DNA of 64,000 nt from assembly GCF_017302975.1 (NCBI RefSeq), contig NZ_JAFIMT010000003.1. The stretch is one strand, 5' to 3'. Source of the DNA: Corallococcus exiguus (lineage in GTDB: Bacteria > Myxococcota > Myxococcia > Myxococcales > Myxococcaceae). A program made the translations under genes and the position numbers. The notes under the pieces are model-generated. The model was not told the origin of the DNA. It worked only from the letters and a program-made list of their open reading frames with translations, and searched no databases. Of the stretch, positions 11,715-46,408 are shown piece after piece. Position 1 is the stretch's first letter, and the number at the start of each line of letters is the position of its first letter.

Positions 11715-11724
11715 CCTCCTGGTT

Positions 11725-29614: not shown

Positions 29615-30868
29615 ATGAACCCAGACACACTCGCACGAGTCCTGTGGCAGGAAGGGCAGACCCTGCTGCCCGAACACTTCCGGGCGCAGGAGGAATCCCT
29701 CTCCACGGAGGCCCGGCGCTACGCGGGGTTCGCCGGCCTGCCGGTGGTGGGCGTGAGCGCGTTGCGTTTCAACGATGTATTGCTCGCCAAGGGCTCGGTG
29801 GCCCTGGAGGAATTGACCGCGGTGTTACCGGGCGGTCACCTGGTGGAGGCTCCGGGCAACGCGGAGGTGACACCGCTGTCGCTCGAGGAGACGGGCCGCA
29901 TGCGGGTGACGGTGTATCTGCACCTGCTCGGGGTGCTGGAGCCCCGCGAGGACCTGGCGCCCGCGGGCGGTGAGGCCCCCAGCGTGGTGCGCGCGGGACG
30001 GCGGCTGTGCCTGTCGCTGGAGCCGGTGGTGGATGACACGGTGAGCAGCCTGTCGCTGGCCGTCTTCACCCGGAACGCGGACGGGCCCTGGCGGATGTCC
30101 GCCACGCACCTGCCGCCGCTCTTGAGCGTGGGGCCCCACCCCTTCCTGGAGCCCCTGTTCGAGCAACTGGACGGCCTGCTCCAGCAGGCGCAGGGGCAGT
30201 TGCGCACGTCGCTGCGCGAAGGCCTGGTGCGGGGCGACCGGCTGGCCAGCGCGCGGCGGGCGCTGTGCGAGGTGCGCAGCCTCCAGGTGCTGCGCCAGGA
30301 CATGCGCCAGGGCCTGCAACCGCCGCCGTACCCGCTGGTGCAGGCGATGCGGCGGCTGTACTTCGAGACGTGCTGCTACCTGGAGGCGGAGCCGGACGAC
30401 GACCTTCCCGCGTACGAGCACGACGCGCCGGGGCCGGGGATCGCGCGGTGGATGGAGCTGCTCACGCGCGGGTTCCGCCCGCAGGCCAGTCCCCTGTCCT
30501 ACCGGGTCTTCGACTTCCAGGACGGCCACTTCAAGCTGACCCCGCTGCCCAAGGAGACGCCGGCGCCGGATGACTTCTACCTGCTGGTGCGCAGGCAGGA
30601 GCGCGACCGGCCCCGCTCCATGGAGGGCGTGAAGCTGGCCAGTCCCCTCCGGCTGCCGGCGGTGCGGCGCCAGGCCTTGAAGGGCGTGCCGTACCGGCAC
30701 GTGGCCTTCCCATCGTTCCCCCACGCCTTCGACGCGGACATCGACTGGTATCAGCTGACGCCCCAGAGCGAGGAATGGCAGTCCGCGACGCGCGAGGACG
30801 GGCTCACCTTCTTCGCCACGCCCGCGCTCGAAGGGGCGCAGGTGCTCCTCTACTGGCGCAGGGCCTGA
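29615..30868 (+). CDS. tssK: T6SS baseplate protein TssK
   Basis: N-terminus MNPDTLARVLWQEGQTLLPEHFRAQEESL, 417 aa. Confidence 0.85.
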   Translation: MNPDTLARVLWQEGQTLLPEHFRAQEESLSTEARRYAGFAGLPVVGVSALRFNDVLLAKGSVALEELTAVLPGGHLVEAPGNAEVTPLSLEETGRMRVTVYLHLLGVLEPREDLAPAGGEAPSVVRAGRRLCLSLEPVVDDTVSSLSLAVFTRNADGPWRMSATHLPPLLSVGPHPFLEPLFEQLDGLLQQAQGQLRTSLREGLVRGDRLASARRALCEVRSLQVLRQDMRQGLQPPPYPLVQAMRRLYFETCCYLEAEPDDDLPAYEHDAPGPGIARWMELLTRGFRPQASPLSYRVFDFQDGHFKLTPLPKETPAPDDFYLLVRRQERDRPRSMEGVKLASPLRLPAVRRQALKGVPYRHVAFPSFPHAFDADIDWYQLTPQSEEWQSATREDGLTFFATPALEGAQVLLYWRRA

Positions 30869-30895
30869 CGGCGGACCGACGGGGGAACGGCGCGC

Positions 30896-31474
30896 ATGCC
30901 CAAGCTCATCTGCATCATCGACATGGACAAGGAGAAGGGCCTCACCCTCACCACGGAGGACAAGGACGGGAAGATCCTCCAGACGGTGAAGATGGACGGT
31001 GAGTCCATCACCCTGGAGGTGAAGGGTGACAGCGCCACCAGCACCATCGTGCAGAAGCAGGACAGCGTCACGGTGACCTGCAAGTCCTTCGTGCTGAAGG
31101 CGGAGACCATCGAGGTGACGTCCACGAAGGCTTCGTCGTGGAAGAGCGACGACACGTTCGCGCTGGAGAGCGCCAAGGCCTTCACGGTCACCACGAAGGA
31201 CGAGCTGACGCAGACGGCGACCAAGGACGCGACCCTCTCCTCGGACAAGGCCGTGACGCTGAAGGCCGCGAAGCTGTTCCGCGTGGAGGGCGCCGACGTC
31301 CAGCTGGAGGCCAAGAGCGGAGAGCTCTCCCTGAATGCCCCGTCCGTCAAGGCGGAGGGCAAGAAGGACATCGCCATGGAGGGGCCGCAGGTGAAGGTGA
31401 CCGCCAAGGCGCAGCTGGCGCTCAAGGCGGACGGCATGGCGGAAATCAAGGGCGGCATGGTGAACGTGGGTTGA
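30896..31474 (+). CDS. Lys/Thr-rich beta-helix repeat protein, gp5-C-terminal/needle-like, 192 aa. It is encoded between tssK and tssL.
   Basis: It has tandem VxVxxK-type beta-strand repeats (..KAAKLFRVEGADVQLEAKSGELSLNAPSVKAEGKKDIAMEGPQVKVTAKAQLALKADGMAEIKGGMVNVG). A GGGGGA RBS is present. Confidence 0.5.
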   Translation: MPKLICIIDMDKEKGLTLTTEDKDGKILQTVKMDGESITLEVKGDSATSTIVQKQDSVTVTCKSFVLKAETIEVTSTKASSWKSDDTFALESAKAFTVTTKDELTQTATKDATLSSDKAVTLKAAKLFRVEGADVQLEAKSGELSLNAPSVKAEGKKDIAMEGPQVKVTAKAQLALKADGMAEIKGGMVNVG

Positions 31475-31486
31475 CGGGGGGGCGCG

Positions 31487-32131
31487 ATGAAGCTCGAGCA
31501 CTGGCAGGTCGTCTTCACGCAGTACCGGCAGGCCCAGTCCGTGCTGGACGGGTGGCTGCCGCAGGCCGCGCCAGGCTCGGTCCCGGCCGCGGCCATGGGG
31601 CTCTTGGGCCGCGAGGGCCTGCGCAGGCTCCACGACGAGCTCCTGGAGGTGATTGAGCGGCTGCGCGCGGGCCTGGGCGCCCACGCCCGCGACGAGGAGG
31701 TGCAGGACGCGCTGAGGCCCTTCACGTACCTGGTGGACGAGCGCGTCCTCCTGCGGCTCGCGGACGCGGAGCAGCCGCTGTGGCCGCTCTTGCAGTACCG
31801 CCTCTTCGGCGAGGACGGCGGCGGCGAGGCCTTCTACACGCTGGCGGATCAGCGCCTGGATCAGCCGGGGTCGCCCGCGCTGCTCTTCGAGATGCTCCAC
31901 TTCTGCATCACGGCGGGCTTCGGAGGCCGCTACCTGGGACACACCGCGAAGCTGCGCGAGTACCAGGAGCGGCTGTCCGCGCGCATCGTCACGCCCCCGC
32001 CACCGCCCGCCCTCGCCGCGTCCGGCGAGACCACCGGGCCGCTGCTCTACGCCTTTCCCGCCCGCTACTACGCCATCAGCGCCGCGAGCGTGCTGGGGCT
32101 GCAGTGCCTGCTCTGGTGGGTGACCCGGTGA
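31487..32131 (+). CDS. tssL: T6SS membrane protein TssL (DotU family)
   Basis: ...LLFEMLHFCITAGFGGRY... plus a C-terminal TM segment, YYAISAASVLGLQCLLWWV. Confidence 0.8.
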   Translation: MKLEHWQVVFTQYRQAQSVLDGWLPQAAPGSVPAAAMGLLGREGLRRLHDELLEVIERLRAGLGAHARDEEVQDALRPFTYLVDERVLLRLADAEQPLWPLLQYRLFGEDGGGEAFYTLADQRLDQPGSPALLFEMLHFCITAGFGGRYLGHTAKLREYQERLSARIVTPPPPPALAASGETTGPLLYAFPARYYAISAASVLGLQCLLWWVTR

Positions 32132-32442
32132 AGCCTCAAGCCGCTCCCCAGACTCCGCCCGCGCCCCCCATCGACGCCGCGCCCGCCCTGCTCCAGGAGG
32201 TGCGGCGGCTCATCGCCGCGCGCCTGGGGGTCGGGACCTTCGGCCTGGAACCCATGCTGGACGAGCTGGGCCAGACGCTGGCCCGCCTGATGCCGGGGCC
32301 GGGGGACGCGCGGTTGTCACCGGAGGAGCAGGAGAAGGCGCGCGCGTCGTTCGCGGGCATGGTGGACACGTTGGAGGACGTCCTGGAGGCCCTGCATCGC
32401 TCGGGCCGGGCTGGGCGCGTCCTGGGCTGGGGGGAGCGCTGA
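32128..32442 (+). CDS. Small hypothetical protein, about 104 aa. GTG start in a GTGA overlap with the tssL stop. An alternative ATG lies near 32254.
   Basis: The frame stays open between tssL and tssM. The N-terminus is Pro/Ala-rich. Confidence 0.35.
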   Translation: MKPQAAPQTPPAPPIDAAPALLQEVRRLIAARLGVGTFGLEPMLDELGQTLARLMPGPGDARLSPEEQEKARASFAGMVDTLEDVLEALHRSGRAGRVLGWGER

Positions 32443-32445
32443 ACC

Positions 32446-35400
32446 ATGGATGTCCTCAAGAAACTGACGGCGTTCATTCCGCCGAAGTGGAAGCCGTACG
32501 CGCTGATCCTCCTGGCGCTGCTGGCCCTCTTCGTGCCGCTGTTCCTCGTGTGGCGCGCGAAGCGCAAGAGCGCGCCGGCCGGAGGGGCCGCCGCGCCGGA
32601 GCCCCTGGCGAAGAACCGGCTGCGCAAGGTGCGCGAGAAGTTCCTGGCCGGGCTGCCGCTGCGCCACCGCGTGGCGGTACGGGACCTGCCAGGTGTGGTG
32701 GTGCTGGGCCCCGCGGGCGCGGGCAAGTCGCGGCTCATCGAGCTGGACCTGGACTGGAAGCGGCAGGCGCGGCAGTTCCTGCCCAGCCTCCTCACGGACT
32801 CGCTGCTCCAGATCTACCTGGGCGCGGACGTGGTGGCCCAGGAGGTGTCCCCGCAGCTGCTGGAGGACGAGTCGCCCCAGGCGCGAGAGGCCCTGCGCCG
32901 GCTGTGGAAGGACAGCTTCGGCGGCGGTCAGCAGGCGCTGGCGGTGCTGGTGCTGGACGCGCGCTGGCTTCAGGACACGCCCCCGGACGAGGTGCGCCGC
33001 GCGGCGCAGCTGTTGCGAGGCAAGCTGAACCTGTTGGCGGAGGTCCGCGGAGGCGCGTTCGAGACGCGCGTATGCCTCACCCACCTGGATGAGCGCGAGG
33101 GCTACGCGGACTTCGCGAAGCTCTTGCGCGCGCACCTCGTGCCGCTGCGCTTCCCCCTCCCCCCGCCCGGCCAGGAGCCCAAGCTGGGTTCGCTGCTCAA
33201 GGCGCAGGAGCAGTACCTGGCGCTGGGCCTGACGGCGCTGCCGGTGGAGTCCTTCGAGCGGCTGGAGCGCTTCTATTCGGAAGGTCACGCGCCCTTCGAG
33301 GCGCTGTCGCGCTTCGTGACGGCGCTGATGGAGGGCCAGACGCTGGCGTACGCGCCCCGGCTGGCCACGGTGTCGCTGTCGTCCGCGGAAAAGGACGCGA
33401 GGGACCCGGACGTCCTGTCGGTGTCCGCCGAGGCGAGCACGGCGAAAGCGGTCCACGAGCGCTACATGCACACGCACCTGCGCCGGGCGGTGCTGCTGGG
33501 CCTGGCGTTCGCGCTGCCGCTGTTGGCCGCGTACGGACACTTCGCGTGGAGGCTGGGCCAGGCGCGCACGCGCGTGCAGCGCTTCGAGGACATGGTCCAG
33601 CGCATGCGCGACCAGGGGCAGGAGGTGTCCGGGGTCGCGGTGCAGGACCCGGTGCTCGCGGCGGGCCAGTCCCTGGACTCGCTGTGGAGGGCGATGAACG
33701 CGTGGCCGCTGTTGCGCTACAGCTTCACCGGCGCGCGAGAGGACCTGCGCCAGCGTCTGGCGCGCGGCATCCGCGAGGCCCACATCCGGCCCGCGTTGGA
33801 GAAGTGCCACCGCCAGCCGGACACGTGCCGTCCGGAGCAGGTCGTCTACCTGCTGGCCACGTTGCACGGCTCGCGCGAGGAGCCGCTGGGTCAGCTGGTG
33901 CTGTCCAGCCTGAAGACGCGCCCGACCTGGAGCTTCGTGTCGGAAGGCAGCGAGACGGAGTCCCCGGGCGACGTGGCCGCGCTGGAGGCGGGGCGCACCT
34001 GGGTGACGGCGGTGGGGCTGAACGAGTCCCTGGTGGCCGACTACGTCGTCATGAGCAATCCGCCGTGGTCCGCGCCGGACACCCCCGAGGCCAGCTGGGC
34101 GCGCTGGCCCTTCCCGGAGCCGCTCACGCTGGAGGCGCAGCTGATGCCGTGGCAGGCGCACCTGCGGCGGTTGCAGGACCTGCTGGCGAACCGGGCCGTG
34201 GAGCCGCGCGAACTGGAGCGGCTGGACGCGGAGCTGGAGTCCATGCAGGACGAGCGCAGGCGGCTCCAGGCGCTGCTGGATGACAGCGCGCGCTTCAGCA
34301 GCCTGCCGCGCGCGTTGGAGCTCCTGGCCGCCTCCGAGGCACGCGTGGACACCAGCCGCTTCCGGGGCATCCCCTCCACGCTCAAGACGGTGGCGTGGAT
34401 CAACGACCACCGGGACGCGCTGACGAACGTGCTGCGCATGGAGGAAGAGGCGTACCTGGGCGTGAAGGCGGTGCAGAAGATGACCGTGGCGGAGCTGCTG
34501 GTGCGCGACGGCCTGTGGCTGCCGGGCAACGGCCCCGCGGTGCTCCAGGTGCCGGTGCTCCAGAGCACCTTCGAGTTCCGTCCCAAGGACGGCTCGCGGC
34601 TGCTGCACCAGGCGCTCCTGCGCTACCACGAGAAGACAGGGCGCCTGCCCTTCGGCGTGGCGGAGGGCGAGGAGGCGGTGGCGTCGCGGGGTGGCGCGAC
34701 CCTGGCGGCGGACCGGCTGGAGTTCGACACGCGGCTGCGCCCGCTGGTGGACGAGTTCACCACGCGCATCAAGGGCGCGGGCCTTCCGGTGGAGGAGGTG
34801 TCGCAGCGCCAGGAGCACGTGCGCCGCAAGGTGAACCAGTTCGCGTTCCAGTACCGCAACCGGCTGTTCCAGCGCGTGTCCACCTACCGCTTCCAGGCGG
34901 TGATTCCCGCGCTCCTGTCGGAGGAGCTCTCGCGTCTCACGCAGCCGTCCTCGGAGCTGGTGGACATGCTGCGCGACGTGGCGCAGGGCGTGGCGCTGGA
35001 GCCGTTGGACGGCCCCTTCTACGAGTCGCTGCGCAACGCGGTGGCGCCGTTCAAGCCCATCGCCACGGTGATGAAGCCGGACGAGACCGGCAACTACACG
35101 GCGCTCAATCCGTACCGCGCGCTGGTGGCCCAGATGTCGGACGAGCTGAACGCGGTGCCCCGTCCGGGCGTGGTGCCCGCGGAAGCGACGGCGTCGCTCA
35201 ACGGAGGCCTGGCCACCGGCAGCACGCAGCTGGCGAGCGGAGCCGCGAAGCTGCCGGAGCTGCTGACGCCGCTGGGGCGGCTGGCCTTCGCGATGATGCT
35301 GGAGGACGACACGTCCTACCTGCGCAAGGTGGACGCGTGGCTGGACCAGCAGGGGCTCATCGGAGAGCTGCGGCAGCCCTTCCGTCAGCCGTTCCTCGCG

Positions 35401-36147
35401 GTGCGCGACCTGGGGCAGCGCGAGATTGAGCGGACCCTGGAGCGGCATTGGGACGACGCATCCAGTCGGTTCCTGCGTCCGCTGCTGAACCGCTATCCGT
35501 TCACGCCGGACGCGTCCCAGGAGGTGGATCCGGGAGACCTGGAGGTCCTGCGCAAGCAGGACGGAGCGTTCTGGGACTTCGTGACGCGGGTGCTGGCGCC
35601 CGTGTGCGAGGAGCGAGGCTCGGAGTGGGTGCCGCGAGGCGCGCTCCAGTCCCGGCTGTCGTTGCCGCAGGGGATGTTGCCCACGCTGGGGAGGCTGTCG
35701 CGGCTGGCCCGCATGTTGTGGGACCCGGAGGGAAGGCCCCGGCCCCTGATGCTGCAGGTGATGCCGTTGCCGCTGCCGAAGGCACCCACGCAGGGCAGCT
35801 TCGTGACGCTGGGTTCGCTCAAGTGCGGCAAGACGACGTTCCTCGCGTACAACCAGAGTCCGTCGTGGCAGGAGTTCCCGCTGGCGTGGTGGGACCAGCA
35901 GACGGCGTCGCTGATGCTGGAGGTGCGAGCGCCCGCGGACCAGTCCGTGCAGTACGCGTCGCTGGAGAAGTCACGTTCGGCGTGGAGCTGCTTCCGGCTG
36001 CTGGAGTCCTCGCAGTCCACGGAAGACCCGCAGCACCGCCGTTGGTCGTTGCGAGCGCGAGGTGCCCTGTCCACGGACGGGATGATGGACCTGCGCTTCG
36101 GGCTCAAGGGTGAGCCCTGGATCCCGTTCCGCGAGGTGCCGCGATGA
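32446..36147 (+). CDS. tssM: T6SS membrane-complex protein TssM (IcmF)
   Basis: 1233 aa with N-terminal TM helices and a Walker A motif, GPAGAGKS. Confidence 0.9.
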   Translation: MDVLKKLTAFIPPKWKPYALILLALLALFVPLFLVWRAKRKSAPAGGAAAPEPLAKNRLRKVREKFLAGLPLRHRVAVRDLPGVVVLGPAGAGKSRLIELDLDWKRQARQFLPSLLTDSLLQIYLGADVVAQEVSPQLLEDESPQAREALRRLWKDSFGGGQQALAVLVLDARWLQDTPPDEVRRAAQLLRGKLNLLAEVRGGAFETRVCLTHLDEREGYADFAKLLRAHLVPLRFPLPPPGQEPKLGSLLKAQEQYLALGLTALPVESFERLERFYSEGHAPFEALSRFVTALMEGQTLAYAPRLATVSLSSAEKDARDPDVLSVSAEASTAKAVHERYMHTHLRRAVLLGLAFALPLLAAYGHFAWRLGQARTRVQRFEDMVQRMRDQGQEVSGVAVQDPVLAAGQSLDSLWRAMNAWPLLRYSFTGAREDLRQRLARGIREAHIRPALEKCHRQPDTCRPEQVVYLLATLHGSREEPLGQLVLSSLKTRPTWSFVSEGSETESPGDVAALEAGRTWVTAVGLNESLVADYVVMSNPPWSAPDTPEASWARWPFPEPLTLEAQLMPWQAHLRRLQDLLANRAVEPRELERLDAELESMQDERRRLQALLDDSARFSSLPRALELLAASEARVDTSRFRGIPSTLKTVAWINDHRDALTNVLRMEEEAYLGVKAVQKMTVAELLVRDGLWLPGNGPAVLQVPVLQSTFEFRPKDGSRLLHQALLRYHEKTGRLPFGVAEGEEAVASRGGATLAADRLEFDTRLRPLVDEFTTRIKGAGLPVEEVSQRQEHVRRKVNQFAFQYRNRLFQRVSTYRFQAVIPALLSEELSRLTQPSSELVDMLRDVAQGVALEPLDGPFYESLRNAVAPFKPIATVMKPDETGNYTALNPYRALVAQMSDELNAVPRPGVVPAEATASLNGGLATGSTQLASGAAKLPELLTPLGRLAFAMMLEDDTSYLRKVDAWLDQQGLIGELRQPFRQPFLAVRDLGQREIERTLERHWDDASSRFLRPLLNRYPFTPDASQEVDPGDLEVLRKQDGAFWDFVTRVLAPVCEERGSEWVPRGALQSRLSLPQGMLPTLGRLSRLARMLWDPEGRPRPLMLQVMPLPLPKAPTQGSFVTLGSLKCGKTTFLAYNQSPSWQEFPLAWWDQQTASLMLEVRAPADQSVQYASLEKSRSAWSCFRLLESSQSTEDPQHRRWSLRARGALSTDGMMDLRFGLKGEPWIPFREVPR

Positions 36148-36659
36148 AACCGTGGGCGAGCTGTATCCCGTTGGCGCTGTGTTTCCTGGCCGCGTGCCAG
36201 CCGAGCACGCTGCACCTGAGCGTGAAGGCGCCGTCCGGGACGAACCAGGGTCGGCCGCTGTACATGCTGGTGCGCAAGGTGGACCCGAAGCAGTTCGCCG
36301 TGGAGTCCTACGGCGAGGTTTCCGCGCGCATCTTCCAACCGGACGCGGACGTGCTGCTGTCCGCGCTCATCTATCCGGGAACGCTGCAGCGCCTGAAGGT
36401 GCCGCTGCCGGACGCCGCCGCGCCGGTGGCGGTGTCGTTCCTGTTCACCGCGCCGGACGGCACCTGGCAGCAGTTCGTCAACACGCCCACGCCCGGCTCG
36501 CTGGACATCGAGCTGCTCGAAGGGCGCATCCGCACGGGAACGCAGCCCGCGGCGCCCAAGGAAGGCGACGACGCGGCGAAGCCGCCCGAGCCGCCCGCCG
36601 CCCCGAAGCCTCCACCCTCCTCTTCCGCCAAGGCCCCGGCCCTCCACGCCGAGAACTGA
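36144..36659 (+). CDS. tssJ: Small outer-membrane lipoprotein, probably TssJ, 171 aa
   Basis: Lipobox ...LAACQ. The size is right for TssJ. Its ATG overlaps the tssM stop as ATGA. A Pro-rich tail is present. Confidence 0.55.
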   Translation: MKPWASCIPLALCFLAACQPSTLHLSVKAPSGTNQGRPLYMLVRKVDPKQFAVESYGEVSARIFQPDADVLLSALIYPGTLQRLKVPLPDAAAPVAVSFLFTAPDGTWQQFVNTPTPGSLDIELLEGRIRTGTQPAAPKEGDDAAKPPEPPAAPKPPPSSSAKAPALHAEN

Positions 36660-36668: not shown

Positions 36669-39600
36669 ATGCAACGCATCCTGTTCATCCTGACGGCTGC
36701 ACTGTGCGTCCTGACCGCCTGCGGTCCCGAGGCGGAGAAGGCACCGGAGTCCGGCACCGCCAAGAGCACCGTCGGCGCGGCGCTGAGACCCGAGGATCCC
36801 GCGGCGGCGCTCAGCGTGTCGGACACCCTCGTCAACTTCAACGACCAGGCCCCGTGCCAGACTCTGTCGGCGGAGAAATCCATCAAGCTGTTCAACACCA
36901 GCACCACGGAGCTCACGATTCACCGGGTGAGCGTCACCGGGGGTTTCACCTTCGAGGGCATTTTCGACACGTCGTCCAACAAATGCGACACCAACTGCCC
37001 CGTGCCGAACACGCCACTGAGCAGCACGAACGCAAAGACCTTGAAGATTGGATTCAAGCCGCTTCAGCCCGGGACCTTCCACGGCACGCTGACGCTGCAC
37101 ACGAACGATCCAGCCGCCCCGTCGATCGCCGTGACGCTGGATGGAAAGGCCCTGGGCCCACTGGTCGTCCTCGGCCAGACGTCCGTGGCGTTCGGTGCCC
37201 ATGAATTGGGTTCTTCGACACCGCGCAACGTCACGGTGATGAACCTGGGCAATACGAACTTCACGATGGAGCCTTCCGCCACCGCGCCCTTCAACGTGTC
37301 CGGCGCCACGGTGACCATCCCGCCCGCGAGTTCGACGACGCTCGCGGTGACCTTCACTCCCCTGACCGCTAACGACCTGGGCCCCGTCTCGGGCTCGCTC
37401 TTCCTGACGAGCGCGTCCGCCGTGTGCCCCGCCCCGCCAACCGCCATGCTCACCGGCGAGGGGCTGTCCCCCGCGAAGCTCTATGTGAGCAGCACCGCGC
37501 TGGCCTTCGAGGCCACGCCGGTGAACACCGACAGCGTCACCCAGGAGGTCATCGTCCGGAACGACGGCGACGGACTGCTCTCGGTGACCCAGGTGAAGCT
37601 GCCCGCCAACTCACCGTTCCGCGTCGACACCACGGGCCCCTTCAGCCTCGCGAAGGGCAGCACCCAACGTCTGGGGGTGACGTTCCGCCCGACGGTGACA
37701 GGCACCTGGAACCACACCCTCAGCCTCACCATCGCCGGAACCGACGTGCCCGCCGTCACGCTGGCTGGCGCGACTCCGGCGGTCATTCCCGCGAAGCTCG
37801 TCTTGAGCCGCACGACGATGGTCTTCCCGCAGACGCCGCTGAACACAGACAGCGTCCCCCAGGAGGTCACGCTCCGGAACGAAGGCGGCAGTGCGCTCAA
37901 CGTGACCCAACTGGCGTTGAGCCAGGGCTCCGCCTTCCGGGTGGATACATCGGCCCCCTTCAGCATCGCCCCGGGGGGGACGCAACGCCTGAATGTGACG
38001 TTCCGGCCGGGTGCGTCCGGGGCTGCCTCCGACACCCTGGTCATCAAGAGCAATGTCGCCGATCAGTCCCTGACGCTCTCAGGCACCACGCCATCCAGCC
38101 CGAAGCTCGTCTTGAGCCGCACCGCGATTGCCTTCGCGCAGACGCCCTTCAACACCGACAGCGCTCCCCAGGAGGTCACGGTCAAGAACGGCGGGGACAG
38201 CCTGCTCACGGTGACCGCCCTGACGCTGCCACAGGACTCACCCTTCCGGGTGGATACCTCGGGCCCCTTCAGCCTCGCGCCCGGAGATACCCAGCGCCTG
38301 CAGCTGATCTTCCACCCGACGCCGACGAGCGCCACGACCGGCAAGCTCACCTTCACCAGCAACGACACCGCCGCCCCCGAACTCAATCTCTCCGGCACCA
38401 CGACGCCGGGCAACGCCTGCCTGGGTATCGACCCCCTTTCGTTCGAATTCGCCGAACAGGAGGCAGGAGACGTGGGCAGTGAGCAGAAGAAGGTGACGGT
38501 GACCAACACGGGGTCGGTCCCGCTGACGGTGACGCCCACCGTGACGACGGGGAGCAGCGCCTATTCCGTGAGCCCCAGCACGGCGTTCACCCTGGCGCCA
38601 GGCCCGGCGGGACGTGAGCTCTTCATCACGTTCAACCCCGGCCCCAACGAGAGCGGTGCCGTGAATGGCGTGCTCACCTTCGGCACGTCGCCCACCACCT
38701 CCTGCGTGACCAGCGTTCCCCTCCATGGCACCGCGCGCAAGACCACGCTGGCGGTCAGCACGACCACCCTGGCCTTCGCTGTTTACACCGTCGGCGACCC
38801 GTACCCGACCCAGCAGGTGATCCTCTCGAACAGCACCAACTGGCCCATCAAGGTGTTCCCCGTGTCCCCCGGGGTCCTGACCCCGTTCACGATCTCCGGC
38901 ATTCCGGCGGAGGGCCTGACCGTCGCGAAGAACGGGGGTACCGCCGCGGTGACGGTGGCCTTCGCCGCGACCACCTCGGGTACCTATTCGAAGACGCTCC
39001 AACTCCAGACGGATGCCTCGCAGCCCGTGCCCCCCGTGGCACTCACCGGACAGGCGTTCGCCCCTGAGCTGTTCCTGGTCAACAATCCCCTGACGTTGCC
39101 CAACGTGGCGCCCGGCGGAGAGTCCACGGCCGATGCGACCTTGCGCAACACCGGCAACCAGGCCCTGTTCCTGTCGAAGGTCACCCCGGAAAGCGACGCC
39201 TTGTTCCAGGTCGTCGACTTCCTGCCCCAGACCGTGCAGCCAGGCGGAGAGACCAAGGTGAAGGTGCGCTTCCGTCCCCTGACCAGCACGGGTGACCTGG
39301 AGACGCGGCTGCGCTTCTTCACCACGAATGACCGGCAGCTGCCGCCCGTGCTCGTCGTGAAGGGCAACTCCAATGGTCCCAACGCCATCTTCACCGCGAC
39401 CGAGATCAACTTTGGTTACAAGCAGAACAAGCTCACCCACGCAGACATCAGCCTCAACGTGACCAACAGCAGCACCGCCTCCGAGCCCCTGAAGGTCACC
39501 GACATCCACATCGAGCCGTCCGGCACGGCGTTCTTCGTGGACAACGTCAACAGCTCCGAGCCCGTGCTCGAGAAGGGCGTGAAGCGCCCCCAGCCCTTCC

Positions 39601-42527
39601 GGGTGACCTTCAGTCCCATCATCGAGGACCTGAAGTACGAGGCCCGCCTGGAGATCACCTACCTGGGGACCACGAGCAATCTCAGGACGACGCGCAGCTT
39701 CCCACTCGTGGGGTTTGGCGCGGAGGCCAGATTCACCACGTCGAAGGCGGACTTGATTTTCACCGCCACGCAGCCGGGCAGCTCCAACATGCTTTCCCTG
39801 GACATCATCAACACAGGACATGTGGACGTTGATCTGGCGGAGGTGGCAGCCAACCTCGGGACGTTCAACATCGACGTCCTTGGTTGGCCCAACGCCATCG
39901 TTCCGGTGAATGGCACGCGCCAGATCGATGTCACGTTCGCTCCACAGCTCTCTGGCAACTACTCAGCCAATCTCTCACTCGCCACGAAGCCGCCTGCCAC
40001 GGCGGGCCTGGTCGTCAAGCTGTCCGGCGTTGCCGCCGTGGCACAGCTGCAGATGAACCCGACTCAGCTCGTTTTCAACGAAGTCCCCCGGCAAACCTCC
40101 AGCACCCAGACCGTCGTGCTGAAGAACATCGGCTCCGCCCCACTCGAAATCAAGAATGTGTCGACGGCGATCGGCCCCTTCAAGGCCATGCTGCAGAACA
40201 ACCCGCAGCTCCCCGTTTTCCTCCAGCGGAATGAGTCCGCCCTGCTCGACGTCACCTTCACTCCTGACGTCGCGCAGGATGTGACTGGAACCGTGCAGGT
40301 GCAGAGCAATTCGAGCGACAGCCAGATCCAGACCATCACGGTCTCGGGCCGGGGCACCATCCCCGTGTTGACGCTGCCCGGCGGCGCTCCCGAATTCGCG
40401 CCCCAGGCGCTCAATGTCGAAGGGGAATCAAAGAGGCTGGTGGTGAAGAACATCGGCAAGGCCCCGCTGGTGGTCTATGCCGTGGAGGTCCCGGACCAGT
40501 TCTGCCTGCGCGAGGACTCGCAGCAAACCACGGCTTGCCAATCCTCCCTGAGCCCCAACGTGCCCGGGCCCATCTTCACGGTGGCCCCCGGCCTCGAGCA
40601 TTACGTCTACATCTCGGCAAAGCCCACCCAACTCCTCACCATCGAGCGCAACCTGACCATCTCCAGCAACGCGGAGCCGTCAGGCACCATCGTGAAGCTG
40701 ATTGTGGATGGAGTGGGCGGCGTGAGCCTGTCGCCCTCCAATATCGACTTCGGGCGCGTGAACTTCGGCTCGTTCATGGAAAAGACGGTGACGGTGACCA
40801 ATACGGGCATCACCGACGCGAACATCTCCGTGACGCTCCCTCCGGGGAGTTCGGAGTTCTCCGTGCAGGAAACGCTGCCCAGGGTGCCCGCGAATGGCAG
40901 TGCCACCGTGAAGCTCCGGTTCACCCCCCAGGGAGCGACGGGCGGACTCAGGACGACCAAGGCCTCGGTGCGGGTGGAGGCATCCTCCCAGGCTCCGCTG
41001 GAGCTCGGCCTTCAGGGAATGGCCACGCTGGCAAGGCTCGCGGTGACGCGCAAGGACGCCCAGGCCTTCGACGGGTCCCTTGATTTTGGAGGCGTCCGGG
41101 TGAACACGACCTCGGAGGCCATCGTCCTGAGGCTGACCCATGCACTGCCGTCTGGCTCCGGGGGCGCAGGCACGGAATCGAGCACGCTCAAGGTGGAGGA
41201 CATCTCGCTGAACGCGGCGGATCCGACGTCGTTCATCCTGCAGAAGCCTTCGCTACCGCTGGTGCTGAACGCAGGAAACAGCATGGATGTGTCGGTCCAG
41301 TTCCGCCCGGGCACCCAGCAGCCCTACTCCGCGGAACTGCGCATCACCTCCGAAGACAGCCAGACGAGCACCATGCTCGTGCAGCTGAAGGGCCAGGGCC
41401 GGACGAATCAGCTCAGCCTGTCCACGCCCACCTTGGAGTTTGGCGCACGGGTGGCCGAGTCCTCCGCCTCGGCGATCCGTTCCGTGCGGCTCACCAACGA
41501 ATCGCTCCAGCCGTTGGTGGTGCGCGGGCTGGAAATCATTGGCGCGGCGGAGAACTCCGAGCCCTCGCACTTCAGCCTGGATTCGGCGCCCACGCTCCCC
41601 TTGACGCTGGCGGCCAAGGAATCGAGGGACATCTCCGTCAAGTTCGTCCCCCGTCCGGACGTCACGTCCAAGGCCAATCTCCTGGTGGTGACGAGCGACC
41701 TTGAGTCTCCGAACGCGCAGGTATCGTTGTCAGGCCGGGGGCTCTCCACGGTGTTCCGGGCGCTCAACCGCACGGTGGACTTCGGCACCGTGCGCCAGGC
41801 GGAGCCGGCGACGACCAAGGTGGTGCTCATCAACGACAGCACCCAGGAGCTGGTGGTGATGCCACCCAAGGTGGAGGGGCCCCAGGCCGCGAATTTCGTG
41901 GTGCTGTCTCCCATCCTGGGAGCGGAGGGCCGTGCCCTGCCGCAGGGTGACTCGCTGACGTTGGATTTGAAGTACGACACCACTCAGATTGGCGCGTCGA
42001 GGGCGACGCTGGTCGTGGGCACGAAGGACCAGGAGCGCGCGGCGCTGGTGGCCCTGTCGGGCATCTCGGTGGCCAGCTTCCTGACCATCGAGCCGTTCGA
42101 GTTGGATCTGGGCTGGGTGGACATTGGTGCCACCAGCACGGCGCGCACGGTGACGCTCACGAACCAGTCCGCGTCGCCGGCGAGGTTGAGCGTGGTGGAG
42201 AACACCAACCCGGCGTTCGTGATCGACGCGAGCGCCCTGGACGCGGAGCTGGCGCCGGGAGCCCAGACGACGGTGAGCGTCACCTTCCACGGAGAGGTGG
42301 GAGGCCCCGCGGAGGGAACGTTGAAGCTGCGCCTGCGAGGAGAGACGACGGCGGAGGCCTCGCTCACGCTGAAGGGCCAGGCCCGGACGCTGGGGGGCAC
42401 GGGCGGCGGCTGCGCCTGTGGAACCAGCGGAGATGGGGGCGCGGCGCTGGCCCTGTTGCTCCTGCTGGGCCTGGGGTTGGCGCGCCAGGGACGGCGGGCT
42501 CAGTCCCAGAAGGAGCGGGTGTCATGA
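36669..42527 (+). CDS. Giant cell-surface lipoprotein of 1952 aa. It has about 18 tandem Ig-like (choice-of-anchor-D/ASH-like) repeats and a C-terminal MYXO-CTERM sorting tag.
   Basis: N-terminal lipobox LTAC. Repeat units read F..V.VG....V.L.N.G...L.V..L.......F....P.....G....L.V.F.P. C-terminus is ...GGTGGGCACGTSGDGGAALALLLLLGLGLARQGRRAQ. Confidence 0.85.
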   Translation: MQRILFILTAALCVLTACGPEAEKAPESGTAKSTVGAALRPEDPAAALSVSDTLVNFNDQAPCQTLSAEKSIKLFNTSTTELTIHRVSVTGGFTFEGIFDTSSNKCDTNCPVPNTPLSSTNAKTLKIGFKPLQPGTFHGTLTLHTNDPAAPSIAVTLDGKALGPLVVLGQTSVAFGAHELGSSTPRNVTVMNLGNTNFTMEPSATAPFNVSGATVTIPPASSTTLAVTFTPLTANDLGPVSGSLFLTSASAVCPAPPTAMLTGEGLSPAKLYVSSTALAFEATPVNTDSVTQEVIVRNDGDGLLSVTQVKLPANSPFRVDTTGPFSLAKGSTQRLGVTFRPTVTGTWNHTLSLTIAGTDVPAVTLAGATPAVIPAKLVLSRTTMVFPQTPLNTDSVPQEVTLRNEGGSALNVTQLALSQGSAFRVDTSAPFSIAPGGTQRLNVTFRPGASGAASDTLVIKSNVADQSLTLSGTTPSSPKLVLSRTAIAFAQTPFNTDSAPQEVTVKNGGDSLLTVTALTLPQDSPFRVDTSGPFSLAPGDTQRLQLIFHPTPTSATTGKLTFTSNDTAAPELNLSGTTTPGNACLGIDPLSFEFAEQEAGDVGSEQKKVTVTNTGSVPLTVTPTVTTGSSAYSVSPSTAFTLAPGPAGRELFITFNPGPNESGAVNGVLTFGTSPTTSCVTSVPLHGTARKTTLAVSTTTLAFAVYTVGDPYPTQQVILSNSTNWPIKVFPVSPGVLTPFTISGIPAEGLTVAKNGGTAAVTVAFAATTSGTYSKTLQLQTDASQPVPPVALTGQAFAPELFLVNNPLTLPNVAPGGESTADATLRNTGNQALFLSKVTPESDALFQVVDFLPQTVQPGGETKVKVRFRPLTSTGDLETRLRFFTTNDRQLPPVLVVKGNSNGPNAIFTATEINFGYKQNKLTHADISLNVTNSSTASEPLKVTDIHIEPSGTAFFVDNVNSSEPVLEKGVKRPQPFRVTFSPIIEDLKYEARLEITYLGTTSNLRTTRSFPLVGFGAEARFTTSKADLIFTATQPGSSNMLSLDIINTGHVDVDLAEVAANLGTFNIDVLGWPNAIVPVNGTRQIDVTFAPQLSGNYSANLSLATKPPATAGLVVKLSGVAAVAQLQMNPTQLVFNEVPRQTSSTQTVVLKNIGSAPLEIKNVSTAIGPFKAMLQNNPQLPVFLQRNESALLDVTFTPDVAQDVTGTVQVQSNSSDSQIQTITVSGRGTIPVLTLPGGAPEFAPQALNVEGESKRLVVKNIGKAPLVVYAVEVPDQFCLREDSQQTTACQSSLSPNVPGPIFTVAPGLEHYVYISAKPTQLLTIERNLTISSNAEPSGTIVKLIVDGVGGVSLSPSNIDFGRVNFGSFMEKTVTVTNTGITDANISVTLPPGSSEFSVQETLPRVPANGSATVKLRFTPQGATGGLRTTKASVRVEASSQAPLELGLQGMATLARLAVTRKDAQAFDGSLDFGGVRVNTTSEAIVLRLTHALPSGSGGAGTESSTLKVEDISLNAADPTSFILQKPSLPLVLNAGNSMDVSVQFRPGTQQPYSAELRITSEDSQTSTMLVQLKGQGRTNQLSLSTPTLEFGARVAESSASAIRSVRLTNESLQPLVVRGLEIIGAAENSEPSHFSLDSAPTLPLTLAAKESRDISVKFVPRPDVTSKANLLVVTSDLESPNAQVSLSGRGLSTVFRALNRTVDFGTVRQAEPATTKVVLINDSTQELVVMPPKVEGPQAANFVVLSPILGAEGRALPQGDSLTLDLKYDTTQIGASRATLVVGTKDQERAALVALSGISVASFLTIEPFELDLGWVDIGATSTARTVTLTNQSASPARLSVVENTNPAFVIDASALDAELAPGAQTTVSVTFHGEVGGPAEGTLKLRLRGETTAEASLTLKGQARTLGGTGGGCACGTSGDGGAALALLLLLGLGLARQGRRAQSQKERVS
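37478..38400 (+). repeat. Three near-identical tandem DNA repeats with a period of about 305-315 bp, lying inside the giant surface-protein gene
   Basis: The units begin aagctctatgtgagcagcaccgcg (37478), aagctcgtcttgagccgcacgacg (37794) and aagctcgtcttgagccgcaccgcg (38101). Confidence 0.7.
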
Positions 42528-44284
42528 CCCAGCATGTCGTCAAGGCCGGAGAGTCGCTGTACAGCATCGCGGCGTCCTACCGGATCGCGGACTGGCGCGT
42601 CGTCTACAAAGACCCACGAAACGCCGCACTCCGGAAGACACGGCCCGATCCTGACCACATCAAACCGGGTGACAAGGTCTACATCCCGGAGTCCAACGTG
42701 TTGGCGGCGGCGTCCGGCTCGGGAGCGGCAAAGACAACCGCGTCTCCCTCCAATGCGCTTCGTATTGATTTGGACGCGCTACGTCGACAGACCCAGCACA
42801 TCCGCCAGGACAACACCCGGGTTGCCACGCGGCCCATCGTCATGCCCAAGGCTCCACCCGAGCCATGGGCCGAGGACTTCACGCCCGACCACGAGTTCTA
42901 CGAGTACCTGGCCCATGATTTCTCCTACTTGAACAACCAGGGCGGCGGCACGCAGGGTGGCGAGAGGTTCCTGTATCGCGCTGAAACGCCGGAGCTCTGG
43001 GCCATGCCCGAGCTGAAGTTCCCGGCGACCTATGCCGTCTCGACCAAACGCCCCTACTCCAAGAAGCCGGGCACACAGCCCCTGTACTACACCATCGTCC
43101 AGATGGAGGGCAGCGACCCCCATAACAAGACGCATGGCGTGTTCGCCTACTGGCTGCAGCCATCTCGTGGGAACCATCCCATCATCGCGGTCCGCGGCAC
43201 CGAGTTCGAGAAGGCACCTGATGCCGTCGCGGACATGGACCCCGCGGGGGTAGGCGCCGCTGCCTTCAAGCTGACCCGCGCGCTCTTCCAGACACTGCTG
43301 ACGCGCATTGGCAGGAAGGACATCGTTGTCGTCGGACACAGCCTGGGCGGCGCCATGGCGCAGCGGGTGGCGGTCGACTTCGGGGACTCGGTCCTCCAGG
43401 TGGTGACCTTCAACTCACCCGGCGTCGATAGAAAGACCGCGAACCGCCTCAAGGCGCCCAAGGGTCCGCAGGCGACTCACTATGTCACCCAGGGAGATGT
43501 CGTCTCACTCGCGGGCGAGACGTTGCTTGCAGGCACCGCCACCATCCTGGAGGGGGCCGCCACGGCGGAACTGCGGAGGCTTCTCAAGAATGGCTCTCTG
43601 CGCAAGGTGGATGATCTCCTCACTGACGTGCTGGGCATCCTCTTCATGATCGTCGTCAAGAAGGAGCTGTTCCCAGCGGTGATGAGGACCTCCAACATCA
43701 AGCAACTGCTCGCCGCGGTGGTAATCGCATATGCCGGAGGGAACGCCCAGGCCGCCCAAAGCGTGGGAGCGGCGCTTGGGGCTCTCCACAGCCAGCGATT
43801 GCTGGGCCCCAACGGGACCACCAAACGCACCCGGCTCACGGTAGGCCCCCAGTCATCCGCCCAGTCCAACGACAACATCCAAAGTTCCATCGTCGAGGAG
43901 ATGCGCAAGAAGCGCCTGGGGGTGCTCAACATCCCGGGACTCTACCGGTCGGTGATGAAGCAGATCGACGCGATCATGGGGGCTCCAGTCAAATCCTTCA
44001 TGAAAGAGGTTATGTCTTACGACTCTCCCCTGCCCAAACTCGCTCGCACACTCCTTCCTCCGCTTGTGACGCTGAAGGTCGCACTCGATGAAGTGGGGGG
44101 ACTGCAAGGCCTTGTCATCAAGTCGCTGCATCTTCCTCCTCCGAAGTTCGACGTGAAGATGCTCCAACCGGATCGGCTGACCATGGACCGCGACAACACC
44201 TACGTGGCGACGAGGCTCCCCCTCATCAACCAGGGGAGCCTGGGAAGAAGCTCGGCACAGCGCTCTTCACCAGGAGGTAGGTGA
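42524..44284 (+). CDS. Putative secreted effector with an N-terminal gpX-like LysM domain fused to a class-3 lipase (GHSLGG), Tle2-like, 586 aa
   Basis: The N-terminus is VVKAGESLYSIAASYRIADWRVVYKDPRNAA...IKPGDKVYIP. The lipase region is IVVVGHSLGGAMAQRVA. Its ATG overlaps the giant-protein stop as ATGA. Confidence 0.75.
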   Translation: MTQHVVKAGESLYSIAASYRIADWRVVYKDPRNAALRKTRPDPDHIKPGDKVYIPESNVLAAASGSGAAKTTASPSNALRIDLDALRRQTQHIRQDNTRVATRPIVMPKAPPEPWAEDFTPDHEFYEYLAHDFSYLNNQGGGTQGGERFLYRAETPELWAMPELKFPATYAVSTKRPYSKKPGTQPLYYTIVQMEGSDPHNKTHGVFAYWLQPSRGNHPIIAVRGTEFEKAPDAVADMDPAGVGAAAFKLTRALFQTLLTRIGRKDIVVVGHSLGGAMAQRVAVDFGDSVLQVVTFNSPGVDRKTANRLKAPKGPQATHYVTQGDVVSLAGETLLAGTATILEGAATAELRRLLKNGSLRKVDDLLTDVLGILFMIVVKKELFPAVMRTSNIKQLLAAVVIAYAGGNAQAAQSVGAALGALHSQRLLGPNGTTKRTRLTVGPQSSAQSNDNIQSSIVEEMRKKRLGVLNIPGLYRSVMKQIDAIMGAPVKSFMKEVMSYDSPLPKLARTLLPPLVTLKVALDEVGGLQGLVIKSLHLPPPKFDVKMLQPDRLTMDRDNTYVATRLPLINQGSLGRSSAQRSSPGGR

Positions 44285-45264
44285 TGGACTTCACGGAGCT
44301 CAAGATCGCCAGGGGCAGTGGCAACTTCCATGTGAATCAATTCCGGATCCACTTCAGCGTCCCCGGGCTCCAGGGCGATCCGCAGAAGCAACTCCCGGCG
44401 CTCGTGGCGGAGTTCACCAAGGACTTTCCCAAGTTCTTCAATGGGCTCGGAAAGAACATGCAGGAGAACCAGGCGAGCGTGGCCTGGTCGACCCGGCAGT
44501 TCGAGCGCACCCGGACGCTTCGCTTCCTGCTCGACGTCAAGCTCGCGGCACTGGGCATCAACCTGCCTGACTTCCACAGCGATTGGGTCCACGTCCTCTG
44601 GCAGGATCCCAACAAGGGGTTCGCCGCGCAGACGCTCAAGCGCAACTTCTCTGAGGGCATGGAGAAGCCCCTGTCGATCCTGCCGCTTTCGGCGCTCTCC
44701 GTCTTGATTCAATACAATGCGTACCACTTCCTCGCGGGCCGCCGGTCCTGGGTCTTCGGCCTCTTGCAGCCGGGGATGCCGGGATGGAACGCGGGAAGTC
44801 TCCAGGTCGGCAAGGTCGAAGGCGGCAAGTTCACGCCCTACAGTGGCGGCCCCACCCCCGTCTTCTACCTGGAGTCCTCGGCGGTCGAGCGATCCTCGCT
44901 GCTCCTGTTCAAGCTCATGGAGGTGGATCCCGGGATCTTCGTCGACATCCGCGAGACCATCATCTCCCTCTGGAGCAACCTGCTCGCGAACTACGTCCAC
45001 GCCAAGGGCTTCCGTCTGAACGTAGGCCACCCCAAGACCTACGGCACGGATGACGGTGCCTCCCTGTGGGCAACCCAACCTGAATGGCGGGGTGTGTATC
45101 GCCGGAAGGCGGAATTTGAAACGCCGCGGGAACTCAACGCGAAGAAGTGGGTCCAGTACCTGCTGGATCTCCATCCCGCATTGAAGAGCCAGCCGCTGAC
45201 GGAGACCGCGTTCAAGGGAATGGGCGGTCGTTCCGGAGGGGGTGGCGCCAGCGGCGGGTGGTGA
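44284..45264 (+). CDS. Hypothetical protein of 326 aa, translationally coupled to the lipase. It has no signal peptide.
   Basis: GGAGG lies 6 nt upstream. The 1-nt TGATG overlap suggests a partner protein, immunity protein or adaptor. Confidence 0.55.
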   Translation: MDFTELKIARGSGNFHVNQFRIHFSVPGLQGDPQKQLPALVAEFTKDFPKFFNGLGKNMQENQASVAWSTRQFERTRTLRFLLDVKLAALGINLPDFHSDWVHVLWQDPNKGFAAQTLKRNFSEGMEKPLSILPLSALSVLIQYNAYHFLAGRRSWVFGLLQPGMPGWNAGSLQVGKVEGGKFTPYSGGPTPVFYLESSAVERSSLLLFKLMEVDPGIFVDIRETIISLWSNLLANYVHAKGFRLNVGHPKTYGTDDGASLWATQPEWRGVYRRKAEFETPRELNAKKWVQYLLDLHPALKSQPLTETAFKGMGGRSGGGGASGGW

Positions 45265-45490
45265 GCCATCCGCGCTTCATCCGCGCGGACATTCGATTAC
45301 GAAGGCACTAACTCCGCACGGCAAATTGCAGATCTGTTCATCAAAAAAAGCCCCATGACCGTGCTTGCGGACATTTCAATGTCGCATCAAGTCCACGGAG
45401 CATCTGCCGTCAAATCAAAAAAACACTCACAGCCCTCACCCGCAGCAACTCAAGCCCAACCCACCAACCCCAATACTCGCAGACCACGTC

Positions 45491-46408
45491 ATGCCTGACA
45501 CTACCTACCGTGTCGTAGCTGGCGATACACTTTCCGATATAGCTATCCGCCACAACACTTCAATCGAAGCGCTCGCCAGCGCAAACTGCATTCTAAACCC
45601 CAATCGCATCCTTATCGGCCAACTTCTGCGGATACCAAGCCAACACAACAGGCCACCCATGCCCGCGAAGAGGCAAACAGAAGCACCTACGAGCGCACTC
45701 TCCACCAAGACTCCGCACGCCAAGTCGCAAAAAACCCAAGCCGATAGATCATCACCTCAATCCGGCTACAAATCTATCAATATCGACTCCTTCCTATCAG
45801 TCAATCAAGCATCAAACTCCCAGGCAGCCATCATCATCGGGAATGCCGAGGGAACTCGGACCCCTCACGGGGGAAAGACGTGGGCATTTGGAAGCCACTC
45901 CGATCCGGGAAACAATAAAACCAATAAGGGCTCTTTCTCATATCAAGACAACATCGTCAAAACGCCTGAAGAGGCAGATCGCAAGCAACTCAAGTCGCTT
46001 CGCGCAAGGATTCCTGAATACCTTCGGGCAGCCAAGAACGCAGGTCTGGATCCGAACAATGCGCTGCTGGCAGCGGCATTTTTTGACAGCCGGAACCAGT
46101 CACAGGCAGCAGGCGACCGATTCCTGCGACAGTTCTCCTATCTCACGGAGAAGGAAATCGCCCCGGGGGCTATTGTCGAAGCACGGATTCGCAGTTGGGT
46201 AGACCCCAGAACGAATCAACGCTACCTGACGAAGAAGGGGAAGCCAGTAGCAGGCGGCTTGGCCAAGATCGCGCAGCGGAGGGCAAAAAAGGAAGGTCGC
46301 GTGTTCCGAGGCGAAGAGGATGTAATCCGCGAGATACGTTTGGATCAGAAACGGCGGATCATGGCAATGATAGAGGCGCTCAAAGCACAGGGACTCACAA
46401 CCCCCTGA
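45491..46408 (+). CDS. N-terminal LysM-domain protein with an unknown C-terminal domain, 305 aa (candidate effector)
   Basis: The N-terminus is MPDTTYRVVAGDTLSDIAIRHNTSIEALASANCILNPNRILIGQLLRIP. The ORF is low-GC. Confidence 0.6.
   Translation: MPDTTYRVVAGDTLSDIAIRHNTSIEALASANCILNPNRILIGQLLRIPSQHNRPPMPAKRQTEAPTSALSTKTPHAKSQKTQADRSSPQSGYKSINIDSFLSVNQASNSQAAIIIGNAEGTRTPHGGKTWAFGSHSDPGNNKTNKGSFSYQDNIVKTPEEADRKQLKSLRARIPEYLRAAKNAGLDPNNALLAAAFFDSRNQSQAAGDRFLRQFSYLTEKEIAPGAIVEARIRSWVDPRTNQRYLTKKGKPVAGGLAKIAQRRAKKEGRVFRGEEDVIREIRLDQKRRIMAMIEALKAQGLTTP

Follow-up and report, generated by a model that had tools for sequence, protein, structure and literature searches.

In a 64,000-nt stretch of the Corallococcus exiguus genome (contig NZ_JAFIMT010000003.1 of assembly GCF_017302975.1; hereafter the window), the gene at 42524-44284 encodes a class-3-lipase-like hydrolase headed by a LysM-like domain. 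Sequence comparison and analogy with published effectors make it probable that this protein, the target of our analysis, is a cargo effector of a type VI secretion system (T6SS), in which the LysM-like module recruits a lipase or phospholipase to the spike complex. The domain comparisons give this N-terminal LysM the look of a module that loads cargo onto a contractile injection machine rather than one that anchors a protein to the cell wall in the classical way. A sequence-only reading of the same DNA had described a GHSLGG class-3 lipase with an N-terminal LysM, and our searches bear out this combination (Pfam Lipase_3, PF01764, 30.2 bits, cut-off 22; Pfam LysM, PF01476, 22.1 bits with the full protein and 29.4 bits with residues 1-64, gathering cut-off 20.9). 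It had further proposed that the LysM domain is of the phage gpX/gp53 type, closely mirrors a LysM protein of a neighbouring extracellular contractile injection system (eCIS), and could load the toxin onto a baseplate or spike. Loading onto a contractile machine agrees with the N-terminal position of the module, the lack of a signal peptide, the swappable toxins of the domain family and the adjacency of its members to vgrG, but the machine indicated is the T6SS and not the eCIS.

The target is a real gene, as its open reading frame (ORF) has the codon-position GC pattern of a coding sequence in a genome of ~70% GC (0.63, 0.45 and 0.80 at positions 1, 2 and 3), an AGGAG lies 8 nt 5′ of the ATG, the ATG overlaps the stop codon of the gene upstream, and four Corallococcus orthologues of 84-93% identity begin with the same methionine (MTQHVVKAGE). 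Neither a signal peptide nor a hydrophobic stretch precedes the LysM domain. Beyond the hydrolase core, a full-length AlphaFold2 (AF2) model was of low quality (mean predicted local distance difference test score, pLDDT, of 57; N-terminal domain <40), and the N-terminal domain was modelled separately in AF2 from an alignment of 35 short homologous fragments. From the N- to the C-terminus, the protein consists of the LysM-like domain, a linker, the hydrolase and a C-terminal region of helices:

42524-44284, plus strand: whole effector ORF, 586 residues, its ATG overlapping the TGA of the upstream giant immunoglobulin (Ig)-repeat gene (ATGA).
42524-42697, plus strand: N-terminal LysM-like module, residues 1-58 (family hidden Markov model, 96.4 bits; Pfam LysM; AF2 pLDDT 86.9).
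42698-42865, plus strand: Ala/Ser-rich, low-complexity linker, residues 59-114, predicted to be disordered except for one helix (pLDDT <50).
42866-43843, plus strand: toxin body, residues ~115-440, a class-3-lipase-like alpha/beta hydrolase (Pfam Lipase_3; homologues carry the prior annotation PF26363, "Phospholipase-like").
43334-43351, plus strand: GHSLGG nucleophile elbow, with the codon for Ser273 at 43340-43342, invariant in 20/20 homologues.
43496-43498, plus strand: Asp325 in a GDVVS motif, the putative catalytic acid, invariant in 20/20 homologues.
43787-43789, plus strand: His422 in an LHSQRLL motif, the putative catalytic base.
43844-44281, plus strand: C-terminal helical region, residues 441-586, from the alignment of homologues and the AF2 model.

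The Pfam LysM match to the target takes in residues 4-21 and extends past them, but aligns well only over the first ~18 profile positions. The separate AF2 model shows a beta-alpha-alpha-alpha-beta arrangement, that is, a LysM fold plus an extra helix. Foldseek searches with this model placed the baseplate LysM domains of phiCD508 and of the Streptomyces contractile injection system (CIS) on top, every match having an E-value of ~1e-2. From 118 N-terminal domains of the family to which the target belongs, named N-LysM here, we built a profile that aligned with the whole target domain (96.4 bits, E = 2.5e-29). The same profile matched the whole LysM domain of gp61, the tube initiator of the contractile phage phiCD508, at 31 bits. 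By comparison, it gave 11.3 bits to the LysM of the window's eCIS (whole domain, low-scoring) and 11.4 bits to the canonical LysM of the protein at 45365-46408 (first 19 residues only). Because the eCIS LysM scores the same as an ordinary LysM, its resemblance to the target is not special. Canonical LysM domains in general match the family profile over its first ~20 residues only, and the LysM domains of gpX, pyocin, PVC and AlgoCIS lie no closer to the target than do those of cell-wall proteins.

The eCIS LysM protein quoted in the sequence-only reading does exist:

6186-6464, minus strand: stand-alone eCIS LysM protein, 92 residues, between the tube-initiator-like and gpD hub genes.

To say that the target domain closely mirrors this protein is, however, too strong. 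BLASTP of the N-terminal 67 residues of the target found 31% identity over 58 columns, with 14 gaps (24%) and E = 0.001, a value that refers to this single pairwise comparison; the likeness resides chiefly in "W-R-[IV]-V" at the start of the second helix and in the terminal "PG..v.IP". This is a weak likeness; BLASTP of the target against the canonical LysM of 45365-46408 found none. The eCIS protein itself matches Phage_tail_X and LysM below threshold and is not an N-LysM member. The matches listed for the target at E ≤ 10 included no Phage_tail_X (gpX, PF05489), although the HMMER filters drop most matches above ~0.1, and 0 of 165 N-LysM family members matched at E ≤ 0.001. Members of the gpX family are small stand-alone baseplate proteins, unlike the target domain, which heads a 586-residue enzyme behind a T6SS cluster. 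A variant LysM, the N-terminal domain of the target has some affinity to one type of LysM from phage tails and is neither a gpX/gp53-type module nor a copy of the window's eCIS subunit.

To place the domain more broadly, we searched 1.84 billion representative sequences with the N-terminal 64 residues of the target using phmmer and recovered 1710 proteins at E ≤ 1e-3, the best non-orthologous relatives being 45-60% identical to the target domain. The family shares the signature HxVKxGExLSSIAxxYGFxDWRxIYxHPxNAxxRxxRPxPxxIxPGDxVxIP, and the domain begins within residues 1-12 in 118 of the 143 top representatives. A signal-peptide-like hydrophobic stretch was found in none of 100 members checked, all of at least 150 residues. 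PG_binding_1 is present in 54 of 100 members (54-69% of the family), and about half of the family consists of ~215-residue proteins with this domain. Other C-termini are Tle3, Amidase_2, Peptidase_C70, DUF3289, thioesterase- or lipase-type hydrolases and hydrophobic domains.

Gene context was examined in 80 genomic loci from Sorangium, Phycisphaerae, Acidobacteriota, Bacteroidota, Gammaproteobacteria and others, retrieved with the pattern RP[DN]P[DNG]xI[YF]PG derived from 12 closer sequences; the target's own variant falls outside this pattern, so the set holds no Corallococcus loci. Of 58 products of same-strand genes in the first or second upstream position, 13 matched Phage_GPD (VgrG; best E ~1e-103), 11 Phage_base_V and 10 Gp5_trimer_C, and PAAR, Hcp, ClpV and DUF4123 also occur there. 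VgrG was absent from the 47 downstream neighbors, which include VasX_N, Tle1-like and Tlde1 proteins, M23 peptidases and OmpA; further contexts feature a DUF2169 adaptor and TsiV. Sheath, tube, gp25 and eCIS_core genes of an eCIS were all absent from the surroundings of N-LysM members in the 80 loci scanned. One locus (L063), which encodes a protein matching the sheath of the window's eCIS, was considered as an eCIS and rejected, being a T6SS with TssC, VipA, ClpV and PAAR. A single-linkage neighbor cluster (38 proteins from 34 loci) was likewise dropped as a count of VgrG in favor of Pfam counts, since its members ranged from 96 to 825 residues and appeared to be chained through shared domains. 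The family pattern is the signature of a predicted T6SS delivery or adaptor module.

The same loci contain a recurrent trio of VgrG (~800 residues), a ~215-residue N-LysM/PG_binding_1 protein and a large, mostly unannotated protein of 700-1400 residues. The trio occurs among loci L009-L088 (for example, L087 7556-10654 and L071 7568-10639) in Acidobacteriota, Planctomycetota, Myxococcota and Gammaproteobacteria. DUF6484 was present in 10 upstream neighbors.

A comparable class of proteins has been described by Wang et al. 2023 (Commun Biol, PMC10673891), who found LysM domains in vgrG loci, either free-standing or fused to the N-termini of T6SS toxins, and showed by co-immunoprecipitation that VgrG-effector binding depends on LysM. 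Examples are Burkholderia sp. RPE67 BRPE67_05220 (LysM-NlpC/P60) and Ketobacter Kalk_10460 (free LysM). Like the target, the fused members of this class carry an N-terminal LysM on a toxin that lacks a signal peptide; like the N-LysM family, the class has both free and fused forms, vgrG adjacency and a proposed recruitment to VgrG. N-LysM is probably the same class. The target differs in bearing a lipase toxin and in following a Francisella-type T6SS cluster rather than a vgrG gene. The sequence-only reading had called such loading an unusual cargo-recruitment mechanism; the mechanism is not new, the concept having been in print since 2023 (PMC10673891).

By this analogy, the module of residues 1-58, a specialised LysM-like unit that in many phyla is encoded right after vgrG, either free (~215 residues) or fused to toxins, would tether the toxin to the VgrG/PAAR spike, and the toxin would be fired out with the spike. 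Residues ~115-440 would then form a class-3-type lipase or phospholipase with a Ser-Asp-His triad and are predicted to act on the membranes of the target cell. The T6SS is favored over the eCIS as the machine because the gene is coupled to a T6SS cluster and no eCIS components lie near family members. The position of the target at the end of that cluster is given by two features:

19661-36659, strand unassigned: Francisella-type T6SS cluster (DUF4280 PAAR-like protein, TssF, TssG, IglI-family protein, VipB, VipA, TssK, VgrG-like protein, DotU, TssM and IglE_N).
36669-42527, plus strand: giant lipoprotein of 1952 residues with Ig/ASH repeats and a MYXO-CTERM-like tail, the final conserved gene of this cluster, directly upstream of the target.

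An orthologue occupies the same slot in Corallococcus sp. M7, after TssM, IglE_N and the giant Ig protein, and is followed by a 328-residue orthologue of the protein encoded next to the target; further downstream, the M7 island holds DUF3304 and a Tle1-like effector. In a metagenomic relative (L090), the lipase is absent, a 331-residue homologue of the same partner comes directly after the giant protein, and a PG_binding_1-AHH toxin lies downstream. The stretch after the T6SS cluster is, as these comparisons indicate, a strain-variable effector island. In the window, the region at ~44-48 kb is low in GC, and housekeeping genes begin at 49.4 kb.

The toxin body opens at a conserved motif, AEDFxPDHxFYExLAH. 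Its AF2 hydrolase core is modelled with pLDDT 70-90, and Foldseek searches with this core placed fungal class-3 lipases on top, with an Enterobacter cloacae T6SS lipase effector (9cys_A) at E = 4.5e-3. A profile of the toxin family matched a Fusarium lipase in the PDB at E = 1.9e-6 and the E. cloacae T6SS lipase (7ubz_B/9cys) at E = 2.1e-6. The assignment of His422 as catalytic base is an inferred one: this residue is conserved among the eight closest homologues only, and an insertion breaks the alignment of the distant ones. The insertion, of ~80 residues (~345-420), is helical, partly hydrophobic and situated between the catalytic Asp and His.

The comparison with known type VI lipase effectors (Tle) is mixed. 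Both the E. cloacae effector "Tle6" (7ubz/9cys, the name being that proposed by the authors of the structure) and Tle2 (for example, Vibrio cholerae TseL/VC1418 and Pseudomonas aeruginosa PAK Tle2) have, like the target, a GxSxG class-3 lipase domain (PF01764), and their Ser-Asp-His triad has a putative counterpart in the target. The PDB searches brought up no solved Tle2 structure. Tle2 is defined by its class-3 lipase domain, is joined to VgrG through a DUF4123 adaptor and is paired with periplasmic Tli2 immunity proteins (PMC9846239); the immunity proteins of Tle6 are ankyrin-repeat proteins (PMC11470151). No DUF4123 match was found among the window ORFs scanned, no periplasmic Tli2 gene lies at the target, where the adjoining 327-residue protein has neither a signal peptide nor a family match, and the ankyrin-repeat immunity proteins of Tle6 have no counterpart there. 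The ~80-residue insertion and the C-terminal helical domain are the target's own features. The label "Tle2-like" in the sequence-only reading thus holds for the class-3 lipase domain and not for the adaptor and immunity hallmarks.

The same toxin body also occurs behind a different N-terminal module. Three homologues (P0005, P0007 and P0020) carry eCIS_core (DUF4157) in place of LysM. P0005 and P0007 share both the toxin body and the C-terminal domain with the target (31-38% identity over 47-74% of the query); the C-terminal helical region is common only to these two eCIS_core-bearing homologues and to P0006, a homologue that appears to be N-terminally truncated. Directly downstream of P0005 (L001 1240-3420) come another eCIS_core protein and an eCIS operon that includes CIS_tube, Phage_base_V and gp25 genes. 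Other homologues of the toxin body carry RTX repeats. The payload is, by its predicted architecture, a polymorphic-toxin cassette whose N-terminal module varies with the machine encoded alongside, and this variation explains why an eCIS reading of the target was tempting. N-LysM would do for the toxin body in the T6SS what eCIS_core is thought to do in its eCIS carriers.

Like the target, the eCIS-associated toxins with eCIS_core/DUF4157 (Geller 2021; Danov 2024) have a modular N-terminal "address" domain, with eCIS_core where the target has the LysM-like module. Such toxins are recognized by eCIS_core/DUF4157 or by a position within ~10 genes of an eCIS (PMC11297309). P0005 shows both traits and the target shows neither: a Pfam scan found no eCIS_core in it, and it lies more than 10 genes from the eCIS of the window, a distance that "neighbouring" does not describe:

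861-13683, minus strand: eCIS operon, cut by the window edge (baseplate-J fusion, gpD hub, LysM protein, CIS_tube initiator-like protein, gp19 tube and sheath).

The target is 36 kb from the eCIS LysM gene and ~29 kb, or ~20 genes, from the last eCIS gene, with the whole T6SS cluster in between. No eCIS_core toxin was found within the visible part of the eCIS locus (861-13683).

Several observations weigh against a role of the target as LysM-addressed T6SS cargo. VgrG stands beside only about a quarter of the scorable N-LysM loci, many of which are short contigs of metagenome-assembled genomes, with crude gene calling. More than half of the family carries PG_binding_1, which makes genuine peptidoglycan binding plausible. 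The vgrG partners of the family elsewhere encode canonical long VgrGs, and a phmmer search with all proteins of the 80 N-LysM loci found no canonical VgrG in the window. The only VgrG candidate of the adjacent Francisella-like T6SS is a small protein at 30896-31474 (192 residues, weak TssI_Fran match) without a gp27-type hub. This gene is 11 kb upstream of the target, and the gene immediately before the target encodes the giant Ig-repeat lipoprotein, not VgrG. Finally, the 327-residue partner lacks the signal peptide of the periplasmic Tli immunity proteins that accompany antibacterial Tle lipases, and it also occurs without the lipase.

The alternative that survives best, although we think it unlikely, is an ordinary peptidoglycan binder, in which LysM would fix the enzyme to the wall of the target cell (or of the lysed producer), near membranes, with no part in loading. 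The Pfam LysM match and the frequency of PG_binding_1 in the family (together with fusions to peptidoglycan amidases in some members) speak for this reading, which was also the ordinary alternative of the sequence-only reading. Against it, the lack of a signal peptide in the target and in the 100 members checked means that a non-Sec route to peptidoglycan would be needed anyway, the strict N-terminal position and vgrG adjacency are typical of delivery modules, and the substrate of a lipase is not peptidoglycan. Moreover, canonical LysM fits only the beginning of the family profile, and LysM-dependent binding of VgrG has been observed in the published co-immunoprecipitations (PMC10673891). Peptidoglycan binding may be compatible with T6SS loading as a second function.

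A more speculative version of T6SS loading, to which we give only a small chance, is that N-LysM truly descends from the LysM of a baseplate "glue" protein or tube initiator, a component otherwise missing from T6SSs, and docks at the baseplate-tube interface as a pseudo-structural subunit. Because the VgrG here is a 192-residue stub without a gp27-type hub, docking might occur at that interface, the position of the LysM in Pvc7 and phiCD508 gp61, rather than at a VgrG hub. The LysM domains of baseplates are structural subunits that glue together tube initiator, sheath initiator and wedge (PMC12546770), not toxin carriers, and in this the target differs from P2 gpX, T4 gp53, the pyocin R2 glue protein PA0627, the tube initiators Pvc7, Afp7 and AlgoCIS, and phiCD508 gp61. 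If the descent were true, it would mean, together with the eCIS_core homologues, that one payload is re-addressed between eCIS and T6SS by swapping an N-terminal module of ~60-100 residues.

It is quite improbable that the target is a non-secreted or otherwise exported enzyme, for example a lipase that a predatory myxobacterium keeps in its cytoplasm or associated with vesicles, with its proximity to the T6SS incidental. The partner gene is not obviously an immunity gene and occurs without the lipase, and the region is a low-GC, horizontally acquired island, both of which would suit such an enzyme; translational coupling to the T6SS cluster in two genomes, the polymorphic-toxin architecture with eCIS_core, RTX and LysM as N-terminal alternatives, and the effector genes in the same island of sister strains argue against it. 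Least likely of all, and very improbable, is that LysM mimics the eCIS gpX-like subunit and the toxin becomes part of, or is mounted on, the eCIS baseplate encoded at 861-13683: the toxin body is eCIS-linked elsewhere (P0005), the window holds an eCIS with a stand-alone LysM protein and some predicted eCIS toxins combine LysM with DUF4157 (PMC11297309), yet the family profile scores the eCIS LysM no higher than a canonical one, the neighbors of the family are VgrG, PAAR, Hcp and ClpV rather than eCIS sheath, tube or eCIS_core, and the target, without eCIS_core, lies outside the 10 genes within which 88% of known eCIS toxins are found (PMC11297309).

The gene that follows the proposed T6SS effector overlaps its stop codon:

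44281-45264, plus strand: 327-residue partner gene, its start overlapping the stop of the target.

Neither Pfam nor NCBIfam gave a match for the partner, which lacks a signal peptide and carries a Gly-rich C-terminal tail, GGRSGGGGASGGW. It is kept beside the lipase in Corallococcus sp. M7, and in L090 (10001-10996) it is present after the T6SS cluster without the lipase; its link to the toxin is thus not a strict one. A distant homologue sits among housekeeping genes. A homologue with 68% identity is named DUF3396, the TsiV family of Pfam, in one UniRef entry, a label that our scans did not reproduce. The partner may be an immunity or accessory protein; given the missing family match and signal peptide and the lipase-free occurrence, it could not be established as the cognate immunity protein.

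A second protein that opens directly with LysM and has no signal peptide is encoded a little further downstream, at 45365-46408 (probable start 45491). Its LysM is canonical (E = 9e-12) and is followed by a C-terminal domain of ~200 residues; the gene lies in a stretch of low GC3 (0.58). The protein falls outside the N-LysM family (11 bits) and may be another horizontally acquired effector.

The T6SS cluster itself is complete and of the Francisella pathogenicity island (FPI), T6SS-ii type, its IglI-family protein scoring 232 bits against a cut-off of 100, and a 216-residue ORF occupies the position of iglC after VipB. Its DUF4280 protein is encoded at 19661-20149 and its sheath at 27177-29500. 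Our literature search found no paper describing Francisella-type T6SS clusters in Myxococcota. In these clusters, giant Ig-repeat lipoproteins of the HYDIN/ASH/Cep192 type (1670-2420 residues) with a MYXO-CTERM-like tail always come after TssM and IglE_N, as also at L002 4892-9904 and L090 2693-9955, and T6SSs of this type may display them as a component at the cell surface. Between a PAS histidine kinase and the T6SS, the region 16660-19763 contains a 474-residue ORF with a faint TraB-like match and a 560-residue ORF with only a short N-terminal AMP-binding fragment, which may be a decayed or atypical adenylating enzyme. In the eCIS operon, a 1416-residue protein has a C-terminal Baseplate_J domain, and a 652-residue protein without a Pfam match is encoded beside the sheath gene. 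The hub gene of this operon spans 4999-6273, the tube-initiator gene 6475-7347 and the sheath gene 9387-11714. A programmed frameshift fusing the ORFs of the eCIS tube initiator and LysM protein was considered and rejected, as the LysM ORF has its own ATG 11 nt past the upstream stop.

If confirmed, the assignment of the target as a T6SS effector would extend the LysM-addressed T6SS effectors to a lipase payload and to the setting of a Francisella-type T6SS in a myxobacterium. The occurrence of one toxin cassette behind two N-terminal modules, eCIS_core, which is an established eCIS marker, and N-LysM, a family associated with the spike genes of T6SSs, would be useful for re-targeting the payloads of contractile injection systems. 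The standard markers MIX, FIX and DUF4123 have been characterised mainly in Proteobacteria. With ~1700 representatives and a strong linkage to vgrG, the N-LysM profile is a possible marker in the search for orphan effectors of T6SSs from Myxococcota, Planctomycetota, Acidobacteriota and Bacteroidota.

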